Below are positions 29,538 through 52,308 of a stretch of DNA of 64,000 nucleotides, one piece after another; positions within the stretch are counted from its first letter, which is position 1; every line of letters begins with the position of its first letter. The position numbers and the translations under genes were made by a program. The notes under the pieces are model-generated. The model saw nothing but the letters and a program-made list of their open reading frames with translations, was not told the origin of the DNA and searched no databases. The stretch is taken from contig QFPN01000007.1 of the NCBI GenBank assembly GCA_003241695.1, forward strand, positions 72,954 to 136,953, in the 5' to 3' direction. Origin of the DNA: Ancylobacter novellus (lineage in GTDB: Bacteria > Pseudomonadota > Alphaproteobacteria > Rhizobiales > Methylopilaceae).

Positions 29538-29544
29538 CTCGGCC

Positions 29545-29904: not shown

Positions 29905-29974
29905 GGATCTCTCCTGAGATGTTTGGGATCAGCGCGGCGGCGGGGCTCGCCGCCGGGCTCGACAGGCGGACGTG

Positions 29975-31501: not shown

Positions 31502-31542
31502 CGGCCTCTCCTCGGTTCTTGGATGCGGTCAGGCGCGAAGGC

Positions 31543-31824: not shown

Positions 31825-32615
31825 TGGTCCTCCGGGTCGAAGAGGGGCCGCTCCGGCGGCCCAAGGGTCGGAAAGTCCGCGGCGCCTGGATCGGGCCGCG
31901 CGGTCCCGCCGTGCGGGATCGTGGTGAAGCCGGCGCTTTCGAGCCGCGGCAGCGCTGGCATGGCGAGCGCGGCGGCGAGCATCCGGCAGGTGACGCCGGC
32001 GCCGCTGCCGGCGGGCGCGGCCTCGCAGACGAGGCGAAGCGCCTCGGGGAGCGCAGCAAAGGAGCCTGTCGGCGGGTTCATCGCGTCGAGCTCGTCCGTC
32101 TTCAGTTCGACGAGGAAGGTCACGAGATGAATCGCGAGCCGCTCCGCGGTCTCGTCGGACGAAAACCGCGAGACCGAGCGCTTCGCGACGCTCTTGGTGA
32201 CGGCCCGCATCAGCAGCGCGCCCTCGGGCGTTGGCTGGGCGAGCGGATGCGGTCGGCCGAGCGTCAGGATCTGCTCGGCGCACCATGCGAGCAGGTTGAG
32301 GGTCGCTTCGAGCTCACCGTCGGTCGCGGGCGTCGCGATCGCAGGGCCGGCCTCGCTGTCGAGGTCGACCAGCGTGTTCATCGCGATCTCGAGCACGAGA
32401 TTGCAGCGGTCGTCGAAGGGCGCGCCGCCGTTCTGGCTGAAACCCTCGCCGTCGAGCTCCTCCGTCGTCACCACGATGATGGGGACGGGCTCGCGATGGT
32501 CGAAGTCGCCGATCCGGCTGTCATAGACCCGGCCGTCGCAGAGTTCCGCGATCGTCGGATGCGAGTTCAGCGCCGCGATCGCCTGCAGGCGAAGCGCAGT
32601 GAGGGCGAGGCTCAT
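31803..32615 (-). CDS. putative tail completion/terminator protein
   Basis: MSLALTALRLQAIAAL..GRVYDSR; neck-tail junction position. Confidence 0.7.
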   Translation of the reverse strand: MSLALTALRLQAIAALNSHPTIAELCDGRVYDSRIGDFDHREPVPIIVVTTEELDGEGFSQNGGAPFDDRCNLVLEIAMNTLVDLDSEAGPAIATPATDGELEATLNLLAWCAEQILTLGRPHPLAQPTPEGALLMRAVTKSVAKRSVSRFSSDETAERLAIHLVTFLVELKTDELDAMNPPTGSFAALPEALRLVCEAAPAGSGAGVTCRMLAAALAMPALPRLESAGFTTIPHGGTARPDPGAADFPTLGPPERPLFDPEDQWPTDVM

Positions 32616-32622
32616 GGACCGA

Positions 32623-33027
32623 TCAGCCCGCGCGCGCCTGGCGCTCGGCAAGTTCGATCGAGATGCGGCCGACGCTGTCCGCCGGCGTCTTCGACACCTC
32701 GAAGACCTCGCCGGTCTTGAGCCGCCGCACGAGGTCGCCGGACTTCGGCACGTAGCGAAGCTCCGACACGGCGACGTCGATCGTCGTCCGCGGCGCTGAA
32801 CTCGCGCGGGTCGCGGTCTGCGGCATGCGCCGACCCTCTGTGTGGAATTCCTCGTCAACCGCCACGAAGGAGCCGACGAACCCGAATGGCTCCCGGCTCG
32901 GGTCGGCGACGAGACGTGCATTCACGTCTCCGCCGACCCGAGCGCGCGGGATCGCCTCGAAATCTTCGCCGAACACCACGTCAATCGCGTCGCCCGCGGC
33001 CGCGAAGGCGTCGTCGAAGATGGACAC
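32623..33027 (-). CDS. head-tail joining protein (lambda FII-like)
   Basis: MSIFDDAFAAA..IDVVFGE..PKSGDLV..FEV..DSVG; position after the capsid gene. Confidence 0.7.
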   Translation of the reverse strand: MSIFDDAFAAAGDAIDVVFGEDFEAIPRARVGGDVNARLVADPSREPFGFVGSFVAVDEEFHTEGRRMPQTATRASSAPRTTIDVAVSELRYVPKSGDLVRRLKTGEVFEVSKTPADSVGRISIELAERQARAG

Positions 33028-33029
33028 CG

Positions 33030-33269
33030 TCAGGCCTTGCGCAGCGCTTCGACGATGTCGGCCTTGGTCTTCGCAGTGGAAATGTCGACACCGCGTTCCG
33101 CCGCGAGCTTCTCGAGGTCCGTCTTGTTCAAGGCGTCGAGATCGTCGACTTCCGCCGTCTCGGCGGCGTCCGCCGAGACATGGGTGCCGGCGGCGATCGC
33201 CGCCTGCGCCTCGTCCCAGCCCATCGGCACCGCCGCGGCGTCGGCCTTGCCCTTTTCCCGAAGCAGCAT
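33030..33269 (-). CDS. small phage protein with HeH/Rho-N-like motif
   Basis: LDALNKTDLEKLAAERGVDI..KTKADIVEAL. Confidence 0.75.
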   Translation of the reverse strand: MLLREKGKADAAAVPMGWDEAQAAIAAGTHVSADAAETAEVDDLDALNKTDLEKLAAERGVDISTAKTKADIVEALRKA

Positions 33270-33280
33270 GGTGTTCTCCC

Positions 33281-34342
33281 TCAGTTCGAGCTGAAGCCGC
33301 GGACGAGCAGCTGCGGCCGCTTGACCAGCGGCAGCGGGTTGCTCTCGGTATGGATCTCCATGCCCTTGCCGAATTTCATGCGTTCGAGCGGGGCGACGAA
33401 GACCTCGGCGTCCTCGACGCCCGGCGCCGTGTTGACCGCGTCCCAGAAATCGGGCGGCCCCCAGTAGTTCGTGAAGGTGTCGGACGTGCCGAGCGGGAAG
33501 AACCGGACGTCACCGGCCGGGATGAACCGCTCCGGAGCCGACTGCGTGCCATCCTCGCGGATGTAACCTGCAGAGCCGCGGTACTCTTCGAACTCGATGC
33601 CGCGGAAGACGAACCCCTTGCGGACGTTCTCCCGGATCGGGTTTGCCCCGGCGGGCGTCGCCGGGTAGTTCTGGAAGGCGTTCTGCATCCGCTTGTGGCC
33701 GAGGAACTTCGTCGCCCACTCGGGGGACATCAGCGCCTTCACGCCCGTCATGGTCTCGCCGTTGAGGTTGTCTTCAAGATACGAGACGACCTCGTCGCAC
33801 TTGGCGCCGATGTCGGTCGTGTCGGTCCCGAGCGTGAAGTCGATCTCCTTCTGCGTCACGTCGAACGCGATGAAGAGATTGAGCAGCGTCGAACCGTCAT
33901 AGTCCTTGATCTCGCCGCGGAGCGCCGTGACGCGCAGGTGCTCGAGCGTGACCGCGTGCTTCTTGCGCATCGTGATCAGCTTGCGGTTGGTGAAGCCAAG
34001 CACCGTCTCAAGCTGCGCGCCCGCCGGAGCCGCCGCGAGCATGTTCTGCACGTCGGTCGCGAGCACCGCGTCCTCGTGCGGAATGTGCGGGATCACGAAG
34101 CTCTTCGGCTTCTGCTTCCCGCGAGTGCCGAGGGACGCGGGCGCGCCGCGAGGCCGGGTCGGGAGCAGGTTCAGCACGCCGTTCTCGATCACCACGATGA
34201 CCGAGGTCGTTGGGATCGGCTCAGGGGTGAAGATCCCGAGCTCGCCGATGCGGCCGTAGCTGTTCGGCACGATCGAGACCGCGCCGGTGAGGGACGCCGC
34301 CGAGAAGGCGTCCTGATTGAAGATGTCGAGCACGGTCGCCAT
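33281..34342 (-). CDS. major capsid protein (lambda E family)
   Basis: LDIFNQDAFSAASLT..GRIGELGIF..TLEHLRVTALRG..FRGIEFEEY..ESNPLP. Confidence 0.95.
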   Translation of the reverse strand: MATVLDIFNQDAFSAASLTGAVSIVPNSYGRIGELGIFTPEPIPTTSVIVVIENGVLNLLPTRPRGAPASLGTRGKQKPKSFVIPHIPHEDAVLATDVQNMLAAAPAGAQLETVLGFTNRKLITMRKKHAVTLEHLRVTALRGEIKDYDGSTLLNLFIAFDVTQKEIDFTLGTDTTDIGAKCDEVVSYLEDNLNGETMTGVKALMSPEWATKFLGHKRMQNAFQNYPATPAGANPIRENVRKGFVFRGIEFEEYRGSAGYIREDGTQSAPERFIPAGDVRFFPLGTSDTFTNYWGPPDFWDAVNTAPGVEDAEVFVAPLERMKFGKGMEIHTESNPLPLVKRPQLLVRGFSSN

Positions 34343-34345
34343 GGG

Positions 34346-34726
34346 TCAGGCTCCTTCGCGGGTCTTGATGTGCACCGCGCGGAGCTGCGCGATCGCCGCC
34401 GCCCGCTTCGTCGCATCGTTGATGGACGGTCCCCAGGTGAGGCCGTTGTGAGAGACGATCGCGCGCTCGTCGACGACGACGATCGGCACGTCGCTGGACG
34501 TCGCGTCGGCCGCGAAGGCGAGGATCGCGACCGCGGTCTGCGATCCGTCGGAGCCCGTCGCAGCGCCGACGACGAACTTGCCATTCGCGCTCAACTTGGC
34601 GAGCACGGTCCCGGATTTCAGTTTGCCCTGTCCGCTGGCGAGGACGCCGGTCGACCGGGAGGCGTAGTTGGGCTCTTCGGACTTCAGCCAGTCCGAGGCG
34701 ACGATGGCGGTTTCGAGAAGCGGCAT
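34346..34726 (-). CDS. head decoration protein (lambda D family)
   Basis: SGTVLAK..DGSQTAVAIL; between protease and capsid genes. Confidence 0.9.
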   Translation of the reverse strand: MPLLETAIVASDWLKSEEPNYASRSTGVLASGQGKLKSGTVLAKLSANGKFVVGAATGSDGSQTAVAILAFAADATSSDVPIVVVDERAIVSHNGLTWGPSINDATKRAAAIAQLRAVHIKTREGA

Positions 34727-34729
34727 CGG

Positions 34730-35857
34730 TCAGGCCTCCTGCTTGACGCCGGCGCGCTTCAGCTGACGCTGCATGCTCGCGGTGGCGGACGACGCGCCGG
34801 CCTCGGGCGTGGCGAGCGGCGTGGTCGGATTGATGGGGGTCTTCTCTTCCTTGGCGACGAAGCGCTCGAAGAGGGCGGCGCGCACCTGGTCGAGAGACTT
34901 GCCCTCGGCGAGGTAGACGTCCGCGGCGTTCGCCTCGATCGTGGGATCCTTCTGGCGGGCGAGGTCGACCGCCATGCGAATGTCCTTCGCCTGGGAGGTG
35001 CGCGCTCGCGCCTGCTCGGCCGTGACGCCTTCGCGCAGCAGCTGGGTGGTCATCGCGGGCACGCCGGCCTTGGCGCAGATGTCCGAGATCTCGATCGCGA
35101 GCGTCGACGCCGCCTGGCGCGCCGCCGCGATGTCTTCGGGCGTCGTCGCGCCCGCCTTCGGTTCCGGCATCGGAGGCTCCTTTTCCGGGGTGGGCGCGGC
35201 CGAGGCCGCTGGGGGACGAGTGACGCTCATGCGCCAGTCGTTCTTTTCGGCGAGCGCCGTCAGGCGCTTCGGCGCATGCGCGTAAATCCGGTAGTCGAAG
35301 GCGGCGACGGCGGGCTCGGCGTCGTTGTCGTTCGCTGGCTTGGAACCTGCGCGGGTCGCGTAACCCTGCGTGACCGCGTCGTCGGGCGTCAGCCAGGTCT
35401 CGGCCTTCATGTCGGCGCGGCACTGTTGAGCGGTCCGGCCTGACTTCGCCGCGTAGACGTTCGAGAACGAGGTTGCGAGCGCGTTCAGCGCGCGCAGCGA
35501 CATCTCGTGTTCCGCCGCGGTCCCGTAAGTGAAGCCGCTCGGATCGTGGATCATCATCGTCGAGCCGAGCGCCATCTCGATCTCGTCGCCCGCCATTGCG
35601 AGCAGCGACGCCGCCGACGCGGCGATGCCCTCGACGACGATGGTCGTCTTGCCGGTGTGGCGCGCGATCGCCGCGTGGATCGCAGAGCCCTCGGTGGCGA
35701 TGCCGCCGCCCGAGTTGAGCCGGATCGTGACGTCGTTCTCGTCGCCCACCTGGGCGAGCGCCGCGATCACCTCGGATGCAGTGAAGCCCTCGTCGTACCA
35801 AAGGGCGCCGACGGTCCCCGAGAGAGTGATCTCGGAGCCGCTCACGCGAACGGTCAT
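34730..35857 (-). CDS. ClpP-like head maturation protease/scaffold
   Basis: IRLNSGGG..VEGIAASAAS..MMIHDP..ETWLT. Confidence 0.93.
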   Translation of the reverse strand: MTVRVSGSEITLSGTVGALWYDEGFTASEVIAALAQVGDENDVTIRLNSGGGIATEGSAIHAAIARHTGKTTIVVEGIAASAASLLAMAGDEIEMALGSTMMIHDPSGFTYGTAAEHEMSLRALNALATSFSNVYAAKSGRTAQQCRADMKAETWLTPDDAVTQGYATRAGSKPANDNDAEPAVAAFDYRIYAHAPKRLTALAEKNDWRMSVTRPPAASAAPTPEKEPPMPEPKAGATTPEDIAAARQAASTLAIEISDICAKAGVPAMTTQLLREGVTAEQARARTSQAKDIRMAVDLARQKDPTIEANAADVYLAEGKSLDQVRAALFERFVAKEEKTPINPTTPLATPEAGASSATASMQRQLKRAGVKQEA

Positions 35858-35868
35858 GGTGATGTCCT

Positions 35869-37467
35869 TCAATCGTCCGCGGGAGCGGGCTGCTTCGCCG
35901 GCGCCGGGGTGTCGTCCGTGACGCCCGGCGACTTCGTCTTCGAGCGTCGGCCGTCGCTGTCGTAGGAGACGCCGAGGTCGTCAGCGCGGGCGTTGTCAGC
36001 CGCGTTCTCGGCGTCGACCGCTTCGGCGTCCTGACCGTCGGCGGACACCTCCGCCGACCGGGTCGAGAATCCCGAGCGGACCTTCATCTGCTTGGCTTCG
36101 ATGTCCTGGACGGGATGGATGTACGCGAACGCCTGCGGGGTCCATTTGACCGCGTAGGCCTGACGTCGGGTCATCCCTTCGGGCAGTTTCAGGACGCCGG
36201 ACAGCAACGCGTAGTCGATGAAGCGGCGATAGACCGGCCGGCAGAACTGGAACACGAGCAACGCGTGCTGGAGCGCCTCGATGCTGCGCCGGAAATCGTT
36301 CAGGGCCGCCCGGAGCGTCCGATCATTGAGCTGACCGTAGTCGCCGCTCAGGATTTCATAGAGGGTGCCGGCGCCAGTCGCGATCGAGCGGAGCGAGACC
36401 CGGATGTACTGCTCGAAGCCTGTCGGGCTGTCGGGCGGATTGGACCACGTGATGTCTTCGTCGTCTTCCAGCACCTGAAGTGTGCCGGCTTCCCATTGGA
36501 GATCGCCGGTGCCTTCCTCGTCCGCGTCGGTCGAGCCGATCGGGTTCTGACCATCGCCAACCCGCTTGATGAAGCCGGCGATCAGCGTCGCGACCTTCTT
36601 ACGGGTCAACTCGGCGTCGAGATAACCTTGCAAATCGTAGAGAGCCTGAAGCACCGGCGCGAGCCATGGCTCGCCGCGCTGCTGGCCCGGCCGCAGTGCC
36701 CGGAAGAGGTGGCAGACGTCCTCGGCAGGAACGACCTTCGCCTCGTTCAGCGCGCCGCCGGACACAATGGCGTCGCCAGGATGATCCCGGGTCAGCCAGT
36801 ACCCGGTGCGCGCGCCCTTGCCGTCGAACTGGATGCCCTGCCAGATGCGGTTCGTTGGGTCGTTCTTCAGGTGGTCGCAATGATCGCCTTCGATGACCTG
36901 CAGCTGCAGCGGAACAGTCAGCCCGTCGCTGAGGCGCCGAGAGCGAAGACGGACGAAGGTCTCCCCTCCCTCCACCATGCCGCGGGCGGCGATCGCCTGA
37001 AGGCCGTAGAAGTCATGAGCTCCCGTGCTGTCGGCCTCGTCGACCCAGTCCCAGAACAGGCCGGCGACAGCGGCGCGGTACTCTTCCGAGCGCTTGTCGG
37101 CAGCCTTCTTCTGCGTCTTCGACATGCCGGTAGTGTCGATCCGGGCGATCGACTGCGGCTTGATCCCCGTGCCGACGAGGTTCGAGACCATGCGATCGAC
37201 GATCGATCGCGCATGTGGGTTTTTCCGCGCCTGGTCGCGAGATTTCCGGCGAAGTTCATCAAGCGCATAGGTCAGGGCGGCGTTCGGGCCAAACGAGCCC
37301 ACCCGCCACGCTCGCGAGCGACGACCGGAGCCGCCGGCGGCGTCGTAGGCCCCAGCTTCAGGCGCGACCCCGCCGGACAACTGGCCGGAGATGTCGAGGG
37401 CTCCGGCGGCCGACGCCGTCATCGGCCGGCTGATCGCCCGCACCCTGTAGCGCGGCTTTTCCGCCAT
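35869..37467 (-). CDS. lambda-family portal protein
   Basis: LRRKSRDQARKNP..VGTGI..RPGQQRGEPWLAP..LSGDY..IHPVQD. Confidence 0.95.
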   Translation of the reverse strand: MAEKPRYRVRAISRPMTASAAGALDISGQLSGGVAPEAGAYDAAGGSGRRSRAWRVGSFGPNAALTYALDELRRKSRDQARKNPHARSIVDRMVSNLVGTGIKPQSIARIDTTGMSKTQKKAADKRSEEYRAAVAGLFWDWVDEADSTGAHDFYGLQAIAARGMVEGGETFVRLRSRRLSDGLTVPLQLQVIEGDHCDHLKNDPTNRIWQGIQFDGKGARTGYWLTRDHPGDAIVSGGALNEAKVVPAEDVCHLFRALRPGQQRGEPWLAPVLQALYDLQGYLDAELTRKKVATLIAGFIKRVGDGQNPIGSTDADEEGTGDLQWEAGTLQVLEDDEDITWSNPPDSPTGFEQYIRVSLRSIATGAGTLYEILSGDYGQLNDRTLRAALNDFRRSIEALQHALLVFQFCRPVYRRFIDYALLSGVLKLPEGMTRRQAYAVKWTPQAFAYIHPVQDIEAKQMKVRSGFSTRSAEVSADGQDAEAVDAENAADNARADDLGVSYDSDGRRSKTKSPGVTDDTPAPAKQPAPADD

Positions 37468-37472
37468 GGACG

Positions 37473-37685
37473 TCAGAAGCCGCTGCGCGGAGACACGACC
37501 ACGCGGCGGACGCGACCGCGGCCAGGGTTCTGTTCGGCCTCGGCCTCGCGAATGAGATCGGCCTCGATCGCATTCATATCCTTGAGAGACCGGAGTTTGA
37601 GACGCCCGCGCCGGTCGATCTCTTCGGCGCCGGTCTGCTTGAGCCTCCGGAACTTGTCGAGGCGATCCTGTGCGGTCTCGGGCAT
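37473..37685 (-). CDS. gpW-like head completion protein
   Basis: 70 aa between terminase and portal; LRSLKDM. Confidence 0.75.
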   Translation of the reverse strand: MPETAQDRLDKFRRLKQTGAEEIDRRGRLKLRSLKDMNAIEADLIREAEAEQNPGRGRVRRVVVSPRSGF

Positions 37686-37689
37686 TGGA

Positions 37690-39747
37690 TCACCTCACGA
37701 CGCTTGAACGGACAACAGAGCGGGCGCGTCGGCGCGACGGGGCCTTGCCTGCGGCGACGACGCTCGGGACGTCCTGCCCGGCGCCATCCGCCCCGCCGAT
37801 GCCGAGCGAGGCTTCGAGTTCACGCCATTGAGACTCTCGCCAGCGATCCCAGCCGCGCATCTGAGCAAGACCGCGGGCGTAGTTCGCACAGTCGAGCACT
37901 TCGTTTCGGCGGCCGGAGATCAACGCCCACTCGCGCCGCGTCTTCCCCTTGGTCACCGACACGATCAGCTCTTCCGAGGTCAGCTGCTTCACGGTGTCTT
38001 CGGACACGTCACGCGGCAGATGCACGAAGCCGGCCGGGTAAGGCGCGCCGCCGGTCGGCCGCTGGAGCGAAAGGCAGCTCGTCAGTTCCTGCTTGCAGAA
38101 CGAAACGCCAATCCGGAGCACCTTGAGGCCACGCCGGATCTTCTTTCCGCGGATGTTGGCGTCCCGCGCCGCAGCGCCGAGATAAGCCGCCTGGTAGCTG
38201 TCGGCGCCGTCCACCGCGTGGACGTTCGCCCGGCCCGCCATCGACCGCACGAAGGCGTAGACCTCCGACGTGAAGCCGCCAGAATCGATCGCCCAGTCCC
38301 TGACGGCCATCTCCGGACCGGCCTCGCTCAGCCAGGTCTCGTCGAACATCTCCTCGAGTGCGTCCCAGACTTCCGGGCGGCCGGTGTCGCCAGGCAGCAC
38401 GCGATGTTCGATCAGCCAGCGCTGGCGATTGCGCCCAAAACCCCAGACGCCGACCTCCAAGCGGTCTTTCTGGACGTCGACGCCGCCGAACAGCACGAGA
38501 GCCTGCCGGCTGACAGATCCGACGAGATAGTCGTCGCGCCGGTTATAGACGTCCTGCCACTCCGGGGCGTCGGCGCCTTCCTTCCAGGTCAGCGCGAGCT
38601 GCGTGTTGCGGAAGGTCTTGAGCGCCTCGGGCCCGCGGCGCAGCGCGCGGGCGAACTTCTTTACCGTTTCGACCACGGTCTGCTTCGGCGCGTAGAGCTT
38701 CGAGGCGTGGTAACCCGCATGCTCGTTCGACACCGCTCGCGTGTTGCAGTGGCGGCAGAGCGCGTAGCGAACGCCGTGGACCTCTTGGTCCCAGATCTCC
38801 GGTTCCTGCCTATCGCCGCAGCACGTGAACGACCGCGTCTGACGCCATGACACGACCTTCAGCGCCTTCAGCCGGTCGGCTTCGGTCCACAACGTGCCGC
38901 AGGACATGCAGGCGATGCGGGCGGTCGACGGGACAATCCGGTCCTGGTCGTCCTTGTCGAACTTGACGTTTTCCCACTCGAGCGGCTGCTGCTCGCCGCA
39001 ATGCGGACAGGCCACGAAGGCCTTACGCTGATCGCTCTCCTCGTAGCTCGCCTCGATCGCGCTGCGGCCGGCGATCGTGGGTGAGCACGCGAGCACCGTC
39101 AGGCTGTTGGTGCGAAACTCTGCCTGGCGCTCTTCCGCGAGATCGATCGGCGGACCTTCGCCGCCGGCCGAAAGCGGGTATTTGTCGATTTCATCGCAGA
39201 CGAGCAGCCGGATGGGCCGCATCGCGAGGTTCGTCGGGCTGTTCGACCCGACCAGCGTAATGTGACCTCCCGGAAACTGCTTGTGCGTCAGCGTCGCGCC
39301 AGCGTCGGTCGCCTTCGCCTCTCCGAAGAGATCACGAAGAACCTTCGTGTCCCGGATCATCGGCGCGAGCCGGTCCTTCGAGAACGTCTCGGCTGCGTCG
39401 TCTTTCGGAAACACCGCAAGGATCGGGCACGGTTCGACGTGGATGAACCGGCCCGTGATGTTTTCGATGACGGTCGTCTTCAGGAGCTGCGTGCAGGCAA
39501 CCAGCGTGATCTTGCTGACGCCCGGCTCCGTCGCAGCGAGCATCGGCCCCCGCGCCACCTCGACACGCGAGACGATGAAGCGGCCGCCGTTCGAACTCTC
39601 CTTGCTCAGCTTGCGATAGCGCTCGGCCCATTCGACGACGTTGAGCGCTGGCGGCGGCGTCAGTCCCTTCCGCCATGACCGAGCGAGGCTCGTGACGTCA
39701 GAGCTGGCATTCCGGCTCGCCGAGTTCGGCGAGATGCTGTTGGACAT
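37690..39747 (-). CDS. terminase large subunit (lambda GpA family)
   Basis: Walker B LLVCDEIDKY, SPTI, CPHCG, GVDVQKDRLE, IDSGG, RRNEVLDC. Confidence 0.96.
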   Translation of the reverse strand: MSNSISPNSASRNASSDVTSLARSWRKGLTPPPALNVVEWAERYRKLSKESSNGGRFIVSRVEVARGPMLAATEPGVSKITLVACTQLLKTTVIENITGRFIHVEPCPILAVFPKDDAAETFSKDRLAPMIRDTKVLRDLFGEAKATDAGATLTHKQFPGGHITLVGSNSPTNLAMRPIRLLVCDEIDKYPLSAGGEGPPIDLAEERQAEFRTNSLTVLACSPTIAGRSAIEASYEESDQRKAFVACPHCGEQQPLEWENVKFDKDDQDRIVPSTARIACMSCGTLWTEADRLKALKVVSWRQTRSFTCCGDRQEPEIWDQEVHGVRYALCRHCNTRAVSNEHAGYHASKLYAPKQTVVETVKKFARALRRGPEALKTFRNTQLALTWKEGADAPEWQDVYNRRDDYLVGSVSRQALVLFGGVDVQKDRLEVGVWGFGRNRQRWLIEHRVLPGDTGRPEVWDALEEMFDETWLSEAGPEMAVRDWAIDSGGFTSEVYAFVRSMAGRANVHAVDGADSYQAAYLGAAARDANIRGKKIRRGLKVLRIGVSFCKQELTSCLSLQRPTGGAPYPAGFVHLPRDVSEDTVKQLTSEELIVSVTKGKTRREWALISGRRNEVLDCANYARGLAQMRGWDRWRESQWRELEASLGIGGADGAGQDVPSVVAAGKAPSRRRARSVVRSSVVR

Positions 39748-40324
39748 GCGCGGTCAGGACCGTGGTGAGCGCGCGGGCGTCGATGTTGAGTTCGTCGGCC
39801 ATGACGACCGCGACCCGCGCTGGCCACGAAAGCCAGGCGTCGCGAAGATCCCGCGCGGTGTCGAAGAACAAGGCCTCCGCGACCGCGCGATCGACGAGGC
39901 GCTCGGCCTCTTTCTCGACGATCTGCTTTCGCTGTAGGCCGAGCCAATTCTCTTTTCGGCGGACCGCCTCGGCGAGGTCGAGTTCGGAGCTGTCGGGATC
40001 GTATGGCGGAAGCGCGTCATCGCTCTCGCCAATGTCGAGGTTCTGGACGGCACGTCGCGGCTTGGCGGGCGCCTCCGCCTTTGGCTTCGGCGTTACCTGC
40101 TGACGCGTTACCTGGGCGTCGCGGACTGGTCGATGGGTAACGCCGCCGCGATAGGTCGGCGGCCGCTGGTCAAGGTTCCACTCCGACGCGTCGACATCGA
40201 CGTCGCCGGCATCGGTCAGCTTCAGCAACCCCCTCTGTTTCCAGACGGTGACGGTCTTTTTGGAGACGCCTCGGCGCTTGGCAAAAGCAGCCTGCGAAAG
40301 GAATTTCGGAGCGTCAGAGACCAT
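39698..40324 (-). CDS. terminase small subunit (Nu1-like)
   Basis: N-terminal wHTH LSQAAFAKRRGVSKKTVTVWK..G; coiled-coil C-terminus; overlaps the large subunit gene. Confidence 0.88.
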   Translation of the reverse strand: MVSDAPKFLSQAAFAKRRGVSKKTVTVWKQRGLLKLTDAGDVDVDASEWNLDQRPPTYRGGVTHRPVRDAQVTRQQVTPKPKAEAPAKPRRAVQNLDIGESDDALPPYDPDSSELDLAEAVRRKENWLGLQRKQIVEKEAERLVDRAVAEALFFDTARDLRDAWLSWPARVAVVMADELNIDARALTTVLTAHVQQHLAELGEPECQL

Positions 40325-40332
40325 GGCCGAGA

Positions 40333-40452
40333 CGTTACCTCCGAGCGTTACCATGCCCGCGTTACCGGGTTTTCGGAGCCTGGAGCTAGGAACGGTCCGC
40401 GCGTTTCTCACCCGTGTCGGGCCGAAGTCCTAGGGGCCCCCGGAGTAGGACT
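40333..40452. promoter_or_regulatory. candidate cos site: dyad AGTCCTA-N13-TAGGACT (40426-40452) plus three CGTTACC repeats
   Basis: Inverted repeat and repeats at 40333, 40346, 40360 immediately upstream of terS. Confidence 0.55.
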
Positions 40453-40571
40453 GAGGTCCTTATGCGTCGTTCTCGGTCGCCTTCTTCATGACCGGGCTTA
40501 GACGCCGATCCTACAGCGGAGCCCAACGGGTGCGCCGTCCGGCGGGCGTCGCTCCAGCCCCACGCCTTCTG

Positions 40572-40596
40572 GGAACGGAGGAGGTCGACGGGGGTT
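40572..40596 (+). promoter_or_regulatory. candidate EcfG (general stress sigma) promoter
   Basis: GGAAC-N16-GGTT upstream of the PRC-barrel gene; one mismatch to GGAAC-N16/17-CGTT. Confidence 0.55.
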
Positions 40597-40628
40597 GAAT
40601 GAGTCCAACCGCGTCAGGGAGCGAAGCG

Positions 40629-40925
40629 ATGGACCACAGCAATCACGTTCGACTAACCCCTCAGGAGCTCATTCCGTCGACACTCGAAGGCGCGACGATC
40701 TACGGGCCGGAGGATGAGAAGATCGGTACTGTCGCCCACGTCCACGGAACTGGCGCCGATGCACAGGTTGCGGTCGATGTGGGCGGGTTCCTTGGCATCG
40801 GAGCGAAGCGCATCGCGGTGCCGGCGACTGATCTGGACTTCATGCGCGACGAAAGTGGCGACGTTCACGCGGTCACGACATGGACCAAGGATCAACTGAA
40901 GGCGATGCCCGAGCATCAGGACTGA
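40629..40925 (+). CDS. PRC-barrel domain protein (moron)
   Basis: LEGATIYGPEDEKIGTV..VDVGGFLGIGAKRIAVP..WTKDQLKAMPE. Confidence 0.92.
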   Translation: MDHSNHVRLTPQELIPSTLEGATIYGPEDEKIGTVAHVHGTGADAQVAVDVGGFLGIGAKRIAVPATDLDFMRDESGDVHAVTTWTKDQLKAMPEHQD

Positions 40926-41159
40926 GGGTCCAAGCGTTGGGGGCGGGAGCAGACCTTCCGCCTCCTGCCCCTCCGGGCCCAGCACGCCGCCTCAGGCAGG
41001 AAGTCGAACACGTTCGCAGTAAAGCGCGAACTGTCGGATTTCAGACGATAGCTAGCCCTCGCGCCAAACGACCAGATCGCCAGAAGAAAACGGCGACGGT
41101 CGGGCTGGGGCTCATCCCGCGGGGAACCGCGGCGTAGATGGATGCTCGTCCTGTGCGGG

Positions 41160-41188
41160 ATTCTGAGGCTAGCGCAGCCTCGCGTCAA
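41160..41188 (-). promoter_or_regulatory. candidate sigma70 late promoter
   Basis: Minus strand TTGACG-N17-CAGAAT with a GAGGCT/AGCCTC dyad in the spacer, pointing toward cos/terS. Confidence 0.55.
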
Positions 41189-41595
41189 GGGTGCGAACCG
41201 GGGGGTAGTGTCTTCGTTCGAGATCTGGGCCTAAGGATTCGGGGGATCGAACGCGCCGGGATTGTTTTTGAGGCCCGTCGCTCCCCGACAACGGGCCAGT
41301 TTTCACGTCGCCTGAAGATCACGGGGCGAGCAATCGTCAGCGCCTTTCTCGGCGGGGGACGACGTGAAACGTCGCCTTAAACGCGCTACGCGGCGACTCC
41401 ATGCGCAATAAAATCGCGCGCATCCTATCTGTTGTGCGCACGCTCGGAGAACGTCGCCCGCCCGTCCCCCTCTTCGCTGATCATCGTCGCATCCGCCACG
41501 CCCGGCCGTCCTTACCGCTCTCCTTCGCCTCCGCGACTGCGGAATGGAAGTGCGTCGCGGCCAAGTTGCCGAAAGAGCCATGGGCAGGCTCCGAT

Positions 41596-42228
41596 CTACC
41601 GCATGGCTTCCATTTCGATCGGGACGATCCGGTCTAGCGGCACAGTCAGTCGCATCCCGAATACGACGTCACGGACCTCGACCTCTCTCGCGTTCGACTG
41701 CCGCTCCACCTTCGCGAGCCAGCCTTCGCCAATGCCCGAAGTGATCCGGATCTGGTCGCCGGGTTGGAGGTCCCAGAGCTTCCCGCGAGGCGGCTCCTTG
41801 TTGAAATCGTAGACGCCCGAGGTCTCGGCCTTCTGAAGCAGAGCGATCGCAGACGCTCTGATACGCGACGGCGCGCCGTGCTGCGAAACGAGATGGTAGA
41901 CGCCATCCACGCCACGAACCTCAGACACCCGCAGGTCGCCGCGGCTATCACGAGGCGAGGCGAAGAACACGTATCTGGGCATGCCGGGCCTTCGCCGCAC
42001 GACGTGCGTCCCTGAGGGGGCGTGGCGCGGCCGCGACCACTTCCATCCGAAAGGCACGAACACGGGCCATCCGAGCGCGGCGATTCCATGCATGGCTTTC
42101 ACCTCGCAGCGCGGGTTCGTTTGGGCCGCGAACCAGACGCTGGAGCCATCGATGGCCGGGGCAGGGGGCGCAGCCGGCGCGTCCGCCTGGGGATGCACGC
42201 GTGCGCGAAGATCGGTCAGACTGAGCAT
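41596..42228 (-). CDS. NusG-family late antiterminator
   Basis: WFAAQTNPRCE..VFVP..PRYVF NGN domain and PGDQIRITSGIGEG KOW motif; occupies the lambda Q position. Confidence 0.85.
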   Translation of the reverse strand: MLSLTDLRARVHPQADAPAAPPAPAIDGSSVWFAAQTNPRCEVKAMHGIAALGWPVFVPFGWKWSRPRHAPSGTHVVRRRPGMPRYVFFASPRDSRGDLRVSEVRGVDGVYHLVSQHGAPSRIRASAIALLQKAETSGVYDFNKEPPRGKLWDLQPGDQIRITSGIGEGWLAKVERQSNAREVEVRDVVFGMRLTVPLDRIVPIEMEAMR

Positions 42229-42446
42229 GGCTTCCTCGATCCGGTGCGGCGGTGACGTTCGGCCGCCTGACGGTCGTGCTCGGCGGCGGCTGCTTTCACC
42301 GCCTCGGCGCGATTGGGAAACGTGCCGATCACCACCCCGTCCGCGTCGAGGGCGTCGAAGCCGGTACGGTCCGCGGTTTCCACGACCCGTCCGATGATGG
42401 TCGAGCCGTCGTAGATGACGATGCGATCCGTCGGCGAGCGGCTCAT
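42216..42446 (-). CDS. small hypothetical phage protein
   Basis: IYDGSTIIGRV..FDALDADGVVIGTFPNRAEA; overlaps both neighbours. Confidence 0.7.
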   Translation of the reverse strand: MSRSPTDRIVIYDGSTIIGRVVETADRTGFDALDADGVVIGTFPNRAEAVKAAAAEHDRQAAERHRRTGSRKPCSV

Positions 42447-43990
42447 CGGCCATACCCTCCGACGTCGTAGTCCGTGGAGCGGTAGCAGCCCTTCGTCAGG
42501 TCGTAGTCGAGATTGAGCTGACACGGGTGGCCAAGCTCCGGGAACCGGGACTTGCGATAGAACAGCGCCGCCTCCGTGCACCGCTGGCTACCCTCGAACA
42601 TCTTCTTTCGATGGACGACGAAGCCCTGGTCGACGCGGTTGTCCCAGTTCTTCGAACCCGAGATGTCTTCGAGCTCCGGCACGCGGCCGCGCTGCTTGCC
42701 GTCCATCTTGGCGGGGTGGGCTAGGATCTGGACGTGCACGTTGAAGGTGACCGCGAACTTGTAGATCTCGGTCAGACAGCGGCCGATGAACTCCGTTTCG
42801 CTCTCCTTGCGCCCGTCGCGATGGGTTTCGAGACGATTCCAAGGGTCGAGCTGGATAAGCTTAGCCCCGCCCCGGATGACGGCCGCTTCGGCGCGATCGA
42901 GCCACCACCCGAGATCCGGTCGGTCGTCCTCGTGCTGTCCCCAGAGGTAGCGATCGTGGATCCAGCGGTCGGCGCGCCGCTCCTCCTCCTCGCTCATCTC
43001 CTTCTCGAGCTTGCCGCTGTGCAGCGAGCGCAGGATGCGGCGCATATGCGGCTTGGCGCGAGTTTCAAAGGTCGTGATGAAGGCGGGGACGTCGTAATCC
43101 CGCACGATGTTGAACACGATCTGCGCGAAGAGGTTGGTCTTGCCGTGGCCGGGCTGGCCGGTCACCACGCTGAGCGCCGGGCAGCCGAGGCGGACCTTGC
43201 TCTCCCACTCGGGAAAGCCGGGGTTCCAAAGCACCATCGGCGGCGGCTCGGGGAAGTCGCCCATCCGGTAAATGCCCGTCACCGGCCAGGCCTTGGCCTT
43301 CTCGGTGACGTAGCTCTTCAGCGCCGCCCGGCCGTGGGCGAGCAGGAACTCGTTCGCGTCCTTGATCCCCTGCGGCCAGTCCACGAACCAGAAGCGCGCG
43401 GCGCCGAGGATGTTCACGAGGTCCTGACGCAGGCTGCGCCCCACAGCGTCGCTGTCGCCGCAGAACACGAAACGCTTTGCCTTGCTGAGCCCCGCGGCAA
43501 GCGCCTCGGCCACGTAGCGGTAACCCCGTATCGGGTCGTCTTCGCCGTCGCCGCCTTTGCGTTCGCTCGCGCCAGTCGGGACGGAAAGCACGGCGTCGAT
43601 CGGGACGCCGGCCTCGATCAGAGCGGCCGCGTCGAACTCGCCCTCCACGATGAAGACCGTCTCCATGGAGCCGGCGAGCACGGCGTCGAGATTGTAGAAG
43701 CAGGTCCGGCCGCCCTTCTGCGAGGTGAAGACCTTCTCGCCGTCGTCCGGACGGAACTTCACGTAGATCGGCTCGGGGTTGTTCGGCTCGAAGTAGCGGA
43801 ACGCGATGCTGTCGCGCTTCTCCTTCAGGCTACCGAACCACACCCCCGTAGCGGAGCCGACGCGCAGCTGCTCCAAAGTCCTGTGGCTGATGCCGCGGTT
43901 CCCTGCGAGGCCCTCGACCGCCGCCGTCGTCCGCGCTGAGACCACCGGTCCAGGGGCAGTGCCAGCAGTGCCAGATTGCGCAGTCGCCAT
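42443..43990 (-). CDS. T7 gp4/Twinkle-like primase (TOPRIM)-SF4 helicase lacking an in-frame Zn finger
   Basis: RGIS, IVEGEFDA, DSDAVG, KDANE; GQPGHGKT, LDPWN, ILAHP, DISGS. Confidence 0.92.
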   Translation of the reverse strand: MATAQSGTAGTAPGPVVSARTTAAVEGLAGNRGISHRTLEQLRVGSATGVWFGSLKEKRDSIAFRYFEPNNPEPIYVKFRPDDGEKVFTSQKGGRTCFYNLDAVLAGSMETVFIVEGEFDAAALIEAGVPIDAVLSVPTGASERKGGDGEDDPIRGYRYVAEALAAGLSKAKRFVFCGDSDAVGRSLRQDLVNILGAARFWFVDWPQGIKDANEFLLAHGRAALKSYVTEKAKAWPVTGIYRMGDFPEPPPMVLWNPGFPEWESKVRLGCPALSVVTGQPGHGKTNLFAQIVFNIVRDYDVPAFITTFETRAKPHMRRILRSLHSGKLEKEMSEEEERRADRWIHDRYLWGQHEDDRPDLGWWLDRAEAAVIRGGAKLIQLDPWNRLETHRDGRKESETEFIGRCLTEIYKFAVTFNVHVQILAHPAKMDGKQRGRVPELEDISGSKNWDNRVDQGFVVHRKKMFEGSQRCTEAALFYRKSRFPELGHPCQLNLDYDLTKGCYRSTDYDVGGYGR

Positions 43991-47213: not shown

Positions 47214-47960
47214 ATGGACGATTTGCGCAAACGGCTGAAGGCGGCCATCGACGCCTCCGCCCACACGATGGCCACGCTCTCTCGAGAGGCCGGGAAAAAT
47301 CACGCCTACATCCAGCAATTCATAGAGCGCGGCGTGCCACGCAAGTTGCCTGAGGACGTTCGCGTTCTTCTCTCCGCGCGTTTGGGCATGCCCGAGACGG
47401 AGCTGGGCGGCCGCAAGCCCATAATCGCAAGCTACGACCCAGCCGAGTTCGACCGCGAGGTAGCGCCCTTCGAGCCGGGCGTCTCCTCTCTCGTGCCTTA
47501 CGAAGGCCGTACGGCCAACGCCATGCCGGACATCGACGTGTCAGCCGGCGCAGGCCCCGGAGGCCTGCCGCTTCCTCATCAACTCCCGCATCAGTCCGGC
47601 GTGGTCTACGCGGCCGACGCAATTCGCGGCGAGGTCATACTGCCGGACTATTTGCTGGGCGAGTACACACGCGCGAAAGCCGGCCGCGTACACGTCGTGC
47701 GGGTCCGCGGCGACAGCATGGAGACGACGCTCTCTTCAGGAGACCGCGTATTCGTCGACACGACGGACGTCGCGATCGGCCAGGGCGGAGTGTTCGTGAT
47801 CCTGGACCCCGACGGCGAGGTGCTGATCAAGCGACTGCGCAAGCTTCCGGAGGGGCGGATTGAGATCGTCTCGGACAATCCGAAGCAAGCAAGCGACAAC
47901 TACGCCGCTGAGGAGATCAGGATTGTAGGGCGGGCGGTCGCGAGGCTGTGCAGGATTTAG
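47214..47960 (+). CDS. CI-like repressor (HTH + S24 peptidase)
   Basis: LSREAGKNHAYIQQF..P; SAGAG cleavage site; VRGDSME (Ser) and LIKRL (Lys). Confidence 0.94.
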   Translation: MDDLRKRLKAAIDASAHTMATLSREAGKNHAYIQQFIERGVPRKLPEDVRVLLSARLGMPETELGGRKPIIASYDPAEFDREVAPFEPGVSSLVPYEGRTANAMPDIDVSAGAGPGGLPLPHQLPHQSGVVYAADAIRGEVILPDYLLGEYTRAKAGRVHVVRVRGDSMETTLSSGDRVFVDTTDVAIGQGGVFVILDPDGEVLIKRLRKLPEGRIEIVSDNPKQASDNYAAEEIRIVGRAVARLCRI

Positions 47961-48126
47961 GAGTTCCCTCCAGAAACGCGGCTAGCGCCTTCGCTACGTC
48001 CTTCGTGACGTGTTCGACCTTTCCGCTTGTGCGGCCTCGACGATCTCGCCAGTCTCGCGATCGGGGACCGCCCAACCGCGATCTGTGTCGTTCACGCAGA
48101 TGACGATGAAGGGGCGACGTTTCGGG

Positions 48127-48351
48127 TCATTTGACGCCGTGAACGTGACGCACGGCTTCTTCGACCATGGGCCACAAATCCGGCGGGCAATCATACACAC
48201 CGCGGGCCTGATCAATCCTGTTCGGAGCGGTGCCGCGAGTTAAGCCGAGGGTTCGCTTCACATGAGCGACGTGGCAGGTTTTGACGCTCTTCCCGTACTT
48301 TTCGAAGACGTATGAGCGCTCGCGCTTATAGCCGGCCTTATCGTCAATCAT
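48127..48351 (-). CDS. small basic hypothetical protein (IS1595-passenger type), start uncertain
   Basis: YVFEKYGKSVKTCHVAHVKRTLGL..APNR..CPP..VEEAV. Confidence 0.5.
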   Translation of the reverse strand: MIDDKAGYKRERSYVFEKYGKSVKTCHVAHVKRTLGLTRGTAPNRIDQARGVYDCPPDLWPMVEEAVRHVHGVK

Positions 48352-48352
48352 T

Positions 48353-48500
48353 TCAACTGCCCCACGGCCTCTTCGGCTTCTCAGCCGGCGCTGGCGGTGC
48401 CGTCGCCAGCTTCCTCACCGTCTCCGCAAACCGTTCCGGGTGGTCGTCCGTCTGTAGCTCGCGCGCGGCGTCGCGGAAATTGTCGATCTGGGTCCTTTTT
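48353..48500 (-). pseudogene. small degenerate ORF of IS1595-passenger type
   Basis: Own translation KRTQIDNFRDAARELQTDDHPERFAETVRKLA..; no in-frame ATG. Confidence 0.45.
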
Positions 48501-48558
48501 GTCGAGCTCCAACTTATGTCTACGCATACTGGTCTGCAGACAATTGGTCTTCAGACGC

Positions 48559-49179
48559 TCAGCCATTCGCGATCAACTCGGCAGCTACGTCTAGCTTATC
48601 TCGGTAATATCGGAACACGGTCACTGCGCCGCCAACGCGCGGATCTGGACTCATTAGAAGACGATAGACACTAACGCCTAATAATGGTCGGCCCATAATT
48701 CTCAATACCAAAGCGTCTAGAGCGGTCTGTGTCGTTGAAGACATGTGTGCACAACGATTTCTGATTGTCTTTAGGTCATTCAATTCCTGAAAAACGCTCG
48801 AAATATGAGGTTCGTATGGATAGCCGTTATTGAAATAAAGATTTGCTATCTTTCTAAAATTATCATGGTTGGCGTAGTCGAAGAACCTTTGTGGTGCGAT
48901 GACAATATTTTTAGCGTGATCAAAACTTTGCGGCTGTACAAATCTGATCGGCAGATTTCCATTAATTGCGGGTGCGCCAATTAAAAACTGAGAAAGCGTC
49001 TCTTCAAGAAAGCTCTCCCACGCTATGAAGAAATTTAAAAAGGCGCAATTTGTAATTTGTTCTTGATCTAAGGCGATTAATTGATTCCCATTTATCGTAG
49101 CTTGATGGGCGCTCACTATCAAGCTCTCGCACTGAGCAACGTCCGTTTTATACTTGTTGAGAGCTGCGGAAATCGACAT
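48559..49179 (-). CDS. HEPN-like protein (putative RNase)
   Basis: Helical; FIAWESFLEE segment and RNRCAH (RxxxxH); AT-rich. Confidence 0.75.
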   Translation of the reverse strand: MSISAALNKYKTDVAQCESLIVSAHQATINGNQLIALDQEQITNCAFLNFFIAWESFLEETLSQFLIGAPAINGNLPIRFVQPQSFDHAKNIVIAPQRFFDYANHDNFRKIANLYFNNGYPYEPHISSVFQELNDLKTIRNRCAHMSSTTQTALDALVLRIMGRPLLGVSVYRLLMSPDPRVGGAVTVFRYYRDKLDVAAELIANG

Positions 49180-49185
49180 ATTTCA

Positions 49186-50232
49186 TTATACCATCAGTCC
49201 GATCATGAAATTCAATCGTCGCTCTCTTACGGCCTCGTCAGTTGTCGCCCTACGGCTATCTTGAATAAATTGACGCTCTTCCCTCTGCAGGGTTCCTGTG
49301 TCTGCAGTCTCGAAAATCTCTCCGAGGCGGTCCAGTCCATTCCGAGCGGCCTGAATTTCAGATACTGACTGGAGCGGAAGACGCTCAGCGGTAGCGCCGT
49401 CTAAGCCAAACAAACAATGCGCGATGGCCGTGAAAAGAGAGTAGAATAAGTGGATTCTGACTAGCTCCGTCGCGCTAATCCCTTCCGGGAACAATTCAAA
49501 TATCTTTCTAATAACCTCATCAAAGCGATCCTCGAGCCCTATCACGTCATGGGGGAAGTGTTTTTCATATCTCCCATAATAGACCTTAATCTGCTTCTTT
49601 GACTTAATGCCCTCACACATGGCTATTAATAAGTCCGCAACCAAGTTTATTTCCTGCATTCTCAATATTTGACGTTCCGATAGAAGTTTTTGAGAAATCC
49701 AATAAGAGTTGTATTTATATCCGATCTTGTCAGCCAGAACTTTAAATTCACTAAAGTGATTTGCGTTCAATCGTTCTTGTTCATTTAGGGTGACTGCGTA
49801 TGAATTTAGACGTCCAAAAATATCTAGGATTTCTGAGTCAGGTAGATTGGTTAAAAGATCCGCGGCAATCTCATAAGCTAAGATCTGAGATTGAACGTCT
49901 TCAGGAAGCTGACTGAAGAACAAGCCGCCGTAATCTGAATTCTGTTTTTTGCTTATTTTAAAGCCGTCTTTAACATAGGAAAGTATGGTTCTAAGTCTTT
50001 GCTGCCCATCAACAACCTCTCGGGCTGCAGTTTTCGTAGAGACGTTGATTTTAGCTCGCATGAAAATCTTCGGTATAGGCTTCCCGCGAATTATTGTATC
50101 CATCAGAAAGCTTTTGGCTTTGTCACTCCATACCGGGCGGCGCTGAAATGCAGGATTTAACTCAAGAGATCGTTGCTTATCCCATTCAATGAAGTCATGT
50201 ATGCTGTACGTACGAGAGTCAAAACTTTTCAT
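49186..50232 (-). CDS. DUF262 (GmrS/ParB-Srx-fold) protein
   Basis: PAFQRRPVW, VVDGQQRL, IFGRLNS motifs; AT-rich. Confidence 0.92.
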   Translation of the reverse strand: MKSFDSRTYSIHDFIEWDKQRSLELNPAFQRRPVWSDKAKSFLMDTIIRGKPIPKIFMRAKINVSTKTAAREVVDGQQRLRTILSYVKDGFKISKKQNSDYGGLFFSQLPEDVQSQILAYEIAADLLTNLPDSEILDIFGRLNSYAVTLNEQERLNANHFSEFKVLADKIGYKYNSYWISQKLLSERQILRMQEINLVADLLIAMCEGIKSKKQIKVYYGRYEKHFPHDVIGLEDRFDEVIRKIFELFPEGISATELVRIHLFYSLFTAIAHCLFGLDGATAERLPLQSVSEIQAARNGLDRLGEIFETADTGTLQREERQFIQDSRRATTDEAVRERRLNFMIGLMV

Positions 50233-50332
50233 GATAGTCTGCCAAGCTCGTCGAGAAAAAGGTCTGCAGTCCTTCGTGAAGCGAGTGCCTGCAGACCACT
50301 CTTACACCGTTCTGTACAGTCGAGAAGCAACC

Positions 50333-50472
50333 TTATGGGTTAGGTTGCCGGTACGTCGGCCGCTTGCCTTGATCCCGACAGCCGCCTTCGCAGTGCGCTG
50401 CACTTCGTTAACGCCAAGCGCCGTGCGGGCGTTGTACCGAAATTCAAACTCCGCGAGGTAGCGGTGCAGGTG
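50333..50472 (-). pseudogene. IS1595-family transposase C-terminal remnant
   Basis: HLHRYLAEFEFRYNARTALGV..GIK, then KRPTYRQP* in a shifted frame. Confidence 0.8.
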
Positions 50473-50853
50473 GTCCGCAAAGGCGAGGCGATCCGGCGGC
50501 TTGAGAAGAAGGGACGGCCGCTTCCCGCCCACTACCTCGCAAAGCCGGACATGTGGCAGGAAAGCGAGTTCTTCTTCGACGCGTTTTGGCGTCTCAGCCA
50601 GTCTCGATCGGTCGGGATGGGCGGGGCGATTCCGTTCGAGGCCGTCGACCGCTTCGCCGAGCGGTCGGGCATTCAGTCCGGCAGCGAGTTCGATCGCTTC
50701 GAGCGCATAATCCGCTCGCTGAACGACGAGTACCTATCCCGCCGCCAGCCGAAGGGGCGTGGCGAGGCAACCAATACAGCCAGCATGAAGGACGCCGGGG
50801 GCGTGCTCGCAGTGCCGCATCGGCACGCCGAGAATTCGACGCCAAAGGATTGA
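50473..50853 (+). pseudogene. fragment resembling a foreign phage tail-assembly-chaperone extension
   Basis: FFDAFWRLSQSRSVGMGGAIPFEAVDRFAERSGI..FERIIRSLNDEYL; no clear start. Confidence 0.55.
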
Positions 50854-51248: not shown

Positions 51249-51779
51249 CTGGATTTCCTCAACCGGAGATCGCGCCTTCTGCCACCGGAGAGGCCCGCAG
51301 GGTTATCAGTAGAATTACGTAGTTGTCACAATGTCGCCGCATATGAAGCGCGCAAGCCACAGTTCGGACGCCGGCGAGGTCCTGGGCTGCTGCAGGGGCT
51401 GCGGAGGGGGAAGGATGATTCGCCGGGATGGAAGGATCCACGCCAATTCCTACCCGCTAGCGGTTTCGAAGCTATGATTACAAAAATATTTGTCGGTGTT
51501 GCGTGTCCGACAACGGAGCCCGATCGCAGTTGCGCGCTGAATCGCCAATGGAAGCCCGTAGGCGGCGATTTTTGCTTTTTTCGTTAGCGGGGCCGCGTCT
51601 CTCGAAAATGACGCTAGTGGCCCTCCTAACGAGTTTCGGCTTGTCAGATCGGCGGCCCACGCATTGGAACAGCGATTGACCGTTGCCCATCTAGAAAATT
51701 AAGTGGTGTCGCGAATGCCCCACAAAGGCCGTCAAGGTCTTGACAAATGCGAAATTGCATTCGCGAGAGAGGTGATTCT

Positions 51780-52112
51780 ATGGCTGTCGCAAAAGTGGTG
51801 GCTATCGAAGCGAACGTTCTGTGGCAGGCGGTCAAGAGCGCGTCCTCTGATCGTTGGATCGGTGTCTGTGAAGAACTGAACCTGTCGACAGAAGCGGATT
51901 CCCTCGACGAGCTTCATAGTCTTATCCCCGAAACTATGCACCTCCTCTTTGCCGATTTGGTTGAGGAGAATGAGTTCGCGGATTATCTTACCGAGCGTGG
52001 GTGGAAGGCAGGCGATTTGCCCGACATGACGCGAGGTGACCTCGAGTTCGATGTCCCTTGGAAGATGATTGCCGAGGGTCAATCGAATGGTGCCGAACGA
52101 CGCAGTCACTAA
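51780..52112 (+). CDS. HicB-like antitoxin lacking an obvious C-terminal DNA-binding domain
   Basis: GAGG RBS; WIGVCEELNLSTEADSLDEL..IPETM; acidic. Confidence 0.65.
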   Translation: MAVAKVVAIEANVLWQAVKSASSDRWIGVCEELNLSTEADSLDELHSLIPETMHLLFADLVEENEFADYLTERGWKAGDLPDMTRGDLEFDVPWKMIAEGQSNGAERRSH

Positions 52113-52308
52113 TGTTCTGAGGGCGCATAATTTTACCTTCAAACGCCAAAGCGATCGGATGATGCTTTGGCGCCAGAGGGGATCGCAAAGGCGGGTTCAG
52201 GTTCGTAGGAACGGTTCTCACGATCCAGATTACGTGAAAACACTTCTGCGGCAGGCCGGTCTGACTATCGAAGAGATCGACGCTTTTTTCCGGTCGATCA
52301 ATTGCTGA
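52087..52308 (+). CDS. HicA-like small basic protein
   Basis: VLRAHNFTFKRQ..MLW..RVQV..YVKTLLRQAGLTIEE; overlaps the hicB-like gene. Confidence 0.65.
   Translation: MVPNDAVTNVLRAHNFTFKRQSDRMMLWRQRGSQRRVQVRRNGSHDPDYVKTLLRQAGLTIEEIDAFFRSINC

Follow-up and report, generated by a model that had tools for sequence, protein, structure and literature searches.

We found that two adjacent genes in a prophage, A encoding a DUF262 protein and B encoding a HEPN-fold protein, constitute, on the grounds of sequence comparison, an unnamed sister family of the anti-phage system PD-T4-2, from which it is distant by sequence. The pair lies in the 64,000-nucleotide stretch of DNA analysed here (the window). 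Taken jointly across three readings of how A and B work together (sensor and effector, antitoxin and toxin, or guard of restriction-modification (R-M)), an anti-phage function is highly probable. The pair likely reached the prophage as the cargo of an IS1595-family transposon that has since decayed, as the sequences on its two sides suggest.

A compact AT-rich operon in a prophage

Gene A precedes gene B, and the two intact open reading frames (ORFs) are separated by 6 nt (49180-49185) (Table 1). The GC contents of A (0.433) and B (0.432) compare with 0.657 for the window and 0.685 for the contig; the coordinates, the gap and the GC content of 0.43 thus all agree with the description of a tight, AT-rich operon in the first-pass annotation of this DNA. 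The prophage setting given there is also corroborated, since PHROGs matches were obtained for structural, lysis, replication and control genes (terminase, portal, capsid, sheath, tape measure, baseplate, endolysin, primase-helicase, CI and antirepressor), and a tyrosine integrase domain is present. The operon and the gene for the CI-like repressor are convergent, and it is plausible that the pair protects the lysogen.

Table 1. Features of the operon and its surroundings (window positions).
Feature	Position	Strand	Remarks
Tyrosine integrase domain	about 4145-4600		
Prophage CI-like repressor	47214-47960	+	Pfam Peptidase_S24 5.8e-18; phrog_4 5e-25
74-aa ORF	48127-48351	-	between operon and CI gene; phrog_27283, E 1.6e-10
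Small-ORF remnant (QIDxFRDAAREL...)	48364-48499	-	135 nt, downstream of B
Gene B	48559-49179	-	206 aa; HEPN-fold; predicted RNase effector
Gene A	49186-50232	-	348 aa; ParB-like DUF262 (GmrSD_N); predicted sensor
IS1595-family transposase 3' remnant	50320-50472	-	last ~50 codons, degenerate; upstream of A
Tail-assembly-chaperone-like ORF	50464-50853	+	Pfam Phage_TAC_18 8e-12; phrog_3817 1.6e-17
Two small overlapping ORFs	51747-52308	+	second ORF a weak HicA toxin match, E 0.018; possibly a HicBA-like pair by sequence

The tail-assembly-chaperone-like ORF is a stray in the immunity region, remote from the tail genes, and abuts the end of the transposase remnant; DNA resembling it is present in several same-genus genomes.

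A scan of the operon for promoters and terminators gave signals at or below chance. In an RNA run compared at 99%+ identity, 47235-50270 is covered by two contigs, the longer of 2,783 nt, and the late genes (24000-43900) are covered in short patches, the longest listed being 618 nt. Because these contigs carry neither strand nor level and DNA carry-over is possible, the coverage is not counted as expression, and the contigs over the operon are a weak hint of transcription.

Domains, motifs and predicted folds of A and B

Residues 25-160 of A match Pfam GmrSD_N (PF03235, DUF262) with an E value of 1.9e-19, in line with the DUF262 sensor domain that had been assigned to it. The translation carries FQRR, VVDGQQRL and FGRLN, in which Q30-R31, D75-G-Q-Q-R79 and F139-R-L-N142 are unchanged in all 98 aligned homologues (a subset of 120 listed, from which N-terminally extended ones were left out). 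The QR, DGQQR and FxRLN motifs are therefore intact, as first read, and their invariance shows that they are more than chance. No further Pfam match was obtained for A at E ≤ 0.1, and residues 151-347 are all-helical in the predicted structure, so the earlier remark that A has no HNH-type C-terminus holds; the only conserved histidines of A are at positions 159, 261 and 272. The best structural matches of A were BrxU (Z 7.0, rmsd 17.5, 268 aligned) and SspE (Z 5.6, rmsd 4.3, 123 aligned), and its PADLOC matches, to NsnA (5.4e-30, the best) and PD-T4-2_A (4.8e-15), cover its N-terminal part only.

The RNRCAH motif is present in the translation of B as R140-x4-H145. Among 112 near-full-length distant homologues of B (22-46% identity), drawn from 150 listed, E55, R140 and H145 are the sole invariant columns, and R140 and H145 are likewise invariant in 113 close homologues. 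The structure model of B (pLDDT 94.6) is most similar to the HEPN toxin 7ae2 (Z 9.6, rmsd 4.3, 132 aligned) and to 8xdj (Z 9.4, rmsd 3.8, 127 aligned); these Z scores are modest for a helical protein, and the HEPN entries top the list and agree with the motif. Six of the first 11 structural matches carry HEPN or HepT-type toxin in their titles; the other five we take to be HEPN-fold proteins. HepT also tops the Foldseek list for B, with an E value of only 0.14, and Foldseek returned no match at E ≤ 0.001 for the models of A and B.

At the sequence level, B matches Pfam HEPN_RiboL-PSP (PF18735) with E 0.0028 and 18 bits, below the cut-off of 28.4. RiboL-PSP-HEPN is matched at E ≤ 0.01 by 25 of the 112 distant homologues (best 1.5e-6) and is found in 28% of the members of one Atlas neighbour cluster. 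PDB sequence searches with A and B gave no meaningful relative, and an NCBIfam scan of the pair gave nothing above cut-off. These data indicate that B, as modelled, is a HEPN-fold protein remote from RiboL-PSP-HEPN and a predicted RNase, and the earlier proposal of a HEPN partner is supported by the modelled fold together with the invariant R140 and H145.

Strict pairing and wide distribution of A and B

Related loci were retrieved by alignment queries; single-sequence queries retrieved none. A lies directly upstream of B in all 24 genome loci, two of them interrupted by insertions. Of the 147 metagenome matches to B, the best 80 were used, and 73 of these have the same arrangement, which is 73 of the 74 informative ones: six of the seven misses have less than 100 nt upstream, and the seventh (L110) is a partial B. 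On viral contigs found with A, B follows downstream in 17 of the 19 closest loci, the other two stopping at the contig edge, and no B match was found in 24 more distant viral DUF262 loci.

By record title, the loci belong to Acidobacteriota, Chlorobiaceae, Pirellulaceae and alpha-, beta-, gamma- and delta-proteobacteria, and one pair is on an actinobacterial conjugative plasmid; B was found in none of 18 other same-genus genomes. The pair occupies prophage variable slots or lies beside integrases or R-M genes, in addition to that one plasmid, and on viral contigs it is flanked by tail genes, adjoins integrases or follows a repressor. A patchy, mobile and tightly coupled distribution of this kind is typical of defence systems.

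A script-based classification of 123 loci scored both genes as intact in 74, among them L018, in which A proved broken on reading. Three independent loci have a broken A and retain the frame and motif of B, namely L018, L019 (identical in sequence to L142) and L122, in which B extends to the contig end. In L128 and L129 a broken A is accompanied by a shortened B, in L024 both genes are broken, and in L023 B is interrupted.

IS1595-family transposons carry the pair

Remnants of an IS1595 element on both sides of the operon, not noticed in the first-pass annotation, rule out that A and B are native prophage genes. The remnant upstream of A aligns in tblastn with the C-termini of full transposases (Pfam DDE_Tnp_IS1595; 49-67% identity, E 1e-7 to 3e-9), and at the DNA level it shares 69-86% identity with transposase ends in genomes of the same genus. 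The small-ORF remnant on the other side shares 78-87% DNA identity with eight stretches in seven same-genus regions and with contig C7 of the source genome. Both ends and most of the transposase are gone from the copy in the window; no terminal inverted repeat was detected around the operon, the best match within 44-56 kb having 7-8 mismatches of 22. In four same-genus genomes (L040-L043), both remnants lie inside complete IS1595 elements of 2.5-3.6 kb, with terminal repeats matching at 20-23 of 24 positions and 8-bp target duplications (one 7/8). The cargo of these four elements differs from A and B and includes, for example, DUF3800 genes.

A decayed IS1595 element on contig C7 (about 262500-263600; L053) encloses a DUF3800-like gene between the same two remnants, and this gene matches PADLOC PDC-M04A.

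Complete IS1595 elements that enclose a transposase together with A and B were found at five loci (L003, L006, L009, L014 and L017). They measure 2,962-3,161 bp, with repeats matching at 19-23 of 24 positions and perfect 8-9-bp duplications, and the transposases of L003 and L017 belong to Pfam DDE_Tnp_IS1595. The transposases of pair-carrying elements are 34-61% identical and occur in two orientations, suggesting that the association of IS1595 with the pair is old or has arisen repeatedly. An IS1595 transposase adjoins the pair in 13 of the 104 genome and metagenome loci, or in 12 of the 68 whose downstream sequence extends for 500 nt or more. Given 99 IS1595 transposase matches, among those listed, in 201 genomes of the source order, adjacency by chance is expected at about 1 in 10,000, a background that covers this one order. 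In the 43 viral loci no transposase was detected, indicating that the pair also travels without one.

Forty of the 99 listed transposase matches of the source order, picked for long contigs, were sampled for their cargo (L213-L252). An inverted-repeat and target-duplication pair was located inside the 6-kb region in 20 of the 40, and all 20 elements so delimited hold 0.9-3.6 kb of passenger DNA. Clear defence-type cargo was seen in eight of the sample, a count that has no background control, and four more gave weak matches. The eight comprise BstA (L213, L214 and L228), R-M genes (L218, L223 and L224), DUF262+HNH (L229) and PDC-S33 (L237).

IS1595-family elements with passenger genes were reportedly described by Siguier et al. 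in 2009. Such insertion sequences (tIS), among them tISCpe8 and MTnSag1, are covered in PMC5704250. Like the pair-carrying relatives found here, they have a DDE transposase, terminal inverted repeats of about 24 bp, an 8-bp target duplication and passengers; the passenger there is a resistance gene, whereas here it is a defence-type pair. Literature searches, largely of open-access papers, returned no paper on IS1595 elements carrying anti-phage genes.

A proposed mechanism and its alternatives

Several features support an anti-phage role: B has a HEPN fold and A a DUF262 domain, the two are strictly paired, and they sit in mobile elements. As to how this role is exerted, we lean, like the first-pass annotation, towards a PD-T4-2-like sensor-effector pair, in which the sensing of a mark by A would switch on the RNase B and lead to abortive infection. 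A would bind NTP via DGQQR, and its helical C-terminal half would scan DNA until it recognises a mark foreign to the host on the phage DNA, with a modified base as the likeliest candidate. An NTP-driven rearrangement of A would then switch B on, and a B dimer, bringing together a composite R140/H145 site, would cut RNA, most likely tRNA or rRNA, such that translation halts and infection aborts. We infer this scheme from mark sensing by GmrSD, BrxU and SspE, from the behaviour of Dazbog and, for the RNA-cutting step, in part from the general behaviour of HEPN RNases. Sensing of unmethylated DNA would fit those relatives that adjoin methyltransferases.

The A-first order and tight coupling of the operon, together with an NTP pocket that could read nucleotide pools, would also suit an A that is an inhibitor (antitoxin) of the RNase, with phage-induced nucleotide depletion or transcription shut-off freeing B, and the nearest solved folds of B are indeed HepT toxins from toxin-antitoxin pairs. 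We consider this unlikely. The retention of an intact B frame and motif beside a disrupted A in L018, L019 and L122 is better explained by an activator than by an antitoxin; these loci could be assembly errors or transcriptionally silent. Moreover, A is the better conserved partner among the top matches (63-72% identity, versus 47-57% for B), unlike a typical antitoxin, which is labile.

Still less probable, in our view, is that the pair backs up or guards R-M by firing on unmethylated DNA or when a phage blocks host R-M, with the help of a methyltransferase gene nearby or elsewhere. Methyltransferase-like genes occur in at least 6 of the 104 genome and metagenome loci (three queries) and directly upstream of the pair in the viral loci L149 and L150, and a related methylase-DUF262-HEPN-motif operon is found on contig C1 of the source genome. 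PD-lambda-5 is likewise listed as 'ParB/HEPN, methyltransferase' (PMC9519451). However, no methyltransferase is present in the window or in the cargo of the five complete transposons, and the pair moves alone between phyla, in which cognate methylation would be lacking.

That the pair is not primarily anti-phage and is instead an addiction or anti-plasmid module stabilising its host transposon or prophage is quite improbable: it is carried on transposons, prophages and a conjugative plasmid, and ParB/Srx-fold proteins include plasmid fertility-inhibition factors (4ovb, a structural match of A with a Z of only 3.6), but every tested DUF262 system named in PMC10952713 is anti-phage, and other IS1595 cargo in the source order often consists of known defence genes.

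If the sensor-effector reading of A and B is extended to the whole family, one may tentatively, and with some doubt, picture an immune family, spread across phyla, in which a DNA-modification sensor of the type IV restriction kind is connected directly to an RNase and whose presence as the sole cargo of 3-kb IS1595 transposons would reflect a general delivery of compact anti-phage genes, including into prophage immunity regions. How a DUF262 sensor switches on a separately encoded effector is an open question in the accounts consulted of PD-T4-2, Dazbog and Menshen, and the compact, highly conserved A and B offer a clean model for it. The PADLOC profiles overlook this family, even though B proteins alone fall into 932 clusters at 50% identity, and the complete IS1595 elements provide a concrete route for such modules between phyla and into prophages. 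The gain is incremental, as the DUF262-HEPN architecture is already known.

Comparison with known systems

DUF262 recognises DNA marks in GmrSD, BrxU and SspE (PMC10952713), and A shares with them the DUF262 NTP-binding domain with DGQQR. In these systems a C-terminal DUF1524 His-Me (HNH) nuclease follows, which A lacks, ruling out membership of GmrSD/BrxU. The predicted effector of the pair is a separate HEPN protein, for which cleavage of RNA rather than DNA is predicted.

Menshen resembles A in its NsnA-type DUF262 sensor without HNH (PMC12065111), but NsnA is followed by the ABC ATPase NsnB and by NsnC, neither of which accompanies A and B. In all 24 genome loci A is followed by B, with no conserved third gene for an ATPase, and the absence of an ATPase gene excludes membership of Menshen.

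Dazbog is also a two-gene system with a DUF262 sensor lacking HNH; it is triggered by a phage cytosine methylase and shows abortive-infection behaviour (10.1101/2022.08.27.505566). The profile matches of A, B and their homologues include no Dazbog-named model, and the library may not contain any; a relation of B to the second Dazbog gene is possible.

Two further sets of genes were encountered during these comparisons. The operon on contig C1 (L052:2714-5824; about 148713-151823, minus strand) has three genes: one for an N4/N6 methyltransferase, one for a DUF262 protein that shares 31% identity with A across 270 columns, and one for a 215-aa protein bearing an RHFFAH motif and only weakly similar to B. 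A more distant pair of DUF262 and RNACAH-motif genes is found in Escherichia phage vB_EcoM-689R6 (L253:2968-4679) and in L159; in the E. coli phage it adjoins an integrase, and its second gene has no PADLOC match.

Operons of ParB with RiboL-PSP-HEPN, and of ParB with MAE_28990 and a methylase, were tabulated in 2013 (Anantharaman et al.; PMC3710099). They are predictions only; B falls under the Pfam RiboL-PSP-HEPN cut-off, and the operon in the window has no methylase, unlike the ParB and MAE_28990 operons. With these predictions and the validation of PD-T4-2 in 2022, the DUF262-HEPN architecture is to be regarded as known.

PD-T4-2, from E. coli ECOR65 (Vassallo et al. 2022), is listed as 'DUF262, HEPN' and validated against T4; its deletion restores T4 plaquing, an H127A mutant strain of the HEPN gene is listed, and the top HHpred match of its second gene is RiboL-PSP-HEPN (PMC9519451). 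The claim in the first-pass annotation that the operon is an uncharacterised system is consequently too strong, in that the architecture had already been validated as PD-T4-2; there is no exact match, however, so a degree of novelty is left at the family level. In the PADLOC check proposed in that annotation the system was missed, with A matching NsnA and, partially, PD-T4-2_A, and B giving no match to PD-T4-2_B. Our literature searches, largely of open-access papers, found no paper on the family of A and B; a match may possibly be present among the four HEPN-bearing DefensePredictor systems (PMC13092281).

A and B resemble PD-T4-2 in having two genes, DUF262 then HEPN, in having RiboL-PSP-HEPN as the best profile of the second protein, and in the size of the first (348 aa, about equal to the 363 positions of the PD-T4-2_A profile). 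Against that profile, A scores 53.5 bits over residues 10-198 and five of its homologues score 55-61 bits, compared with 557 bits over residues 5-360 for a true homologue (L025). Against PD-T4-2_B, a true homologue scores 196 bits and B has no match at E ≤ 0.1; weak matches were obtained for 5 of 113 close and 2 of 112 distant B homologues, the best with E 0.004. B is about 40 aa longer than its counterpart, and A has DGQQR where the two PD-T4-2 homologues fetched have DGLQR. In profile comparisons, the A side aligns with PD-T4-2 in the DUF262 domain only, and the B side over 22 columns around the HEPN motif with 39% probability. A quick tree, with long branches, places the A and B family and the two PD-T4-2 homologues on separate branches. 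Exact membership of PD-T4-2 is ruled out by the profile scores of A and B, and since the similarity does not extend beyond the DUF262 domain and the HEPN motif, the trigger and target of A and B may differ from those of PD-T4-2.
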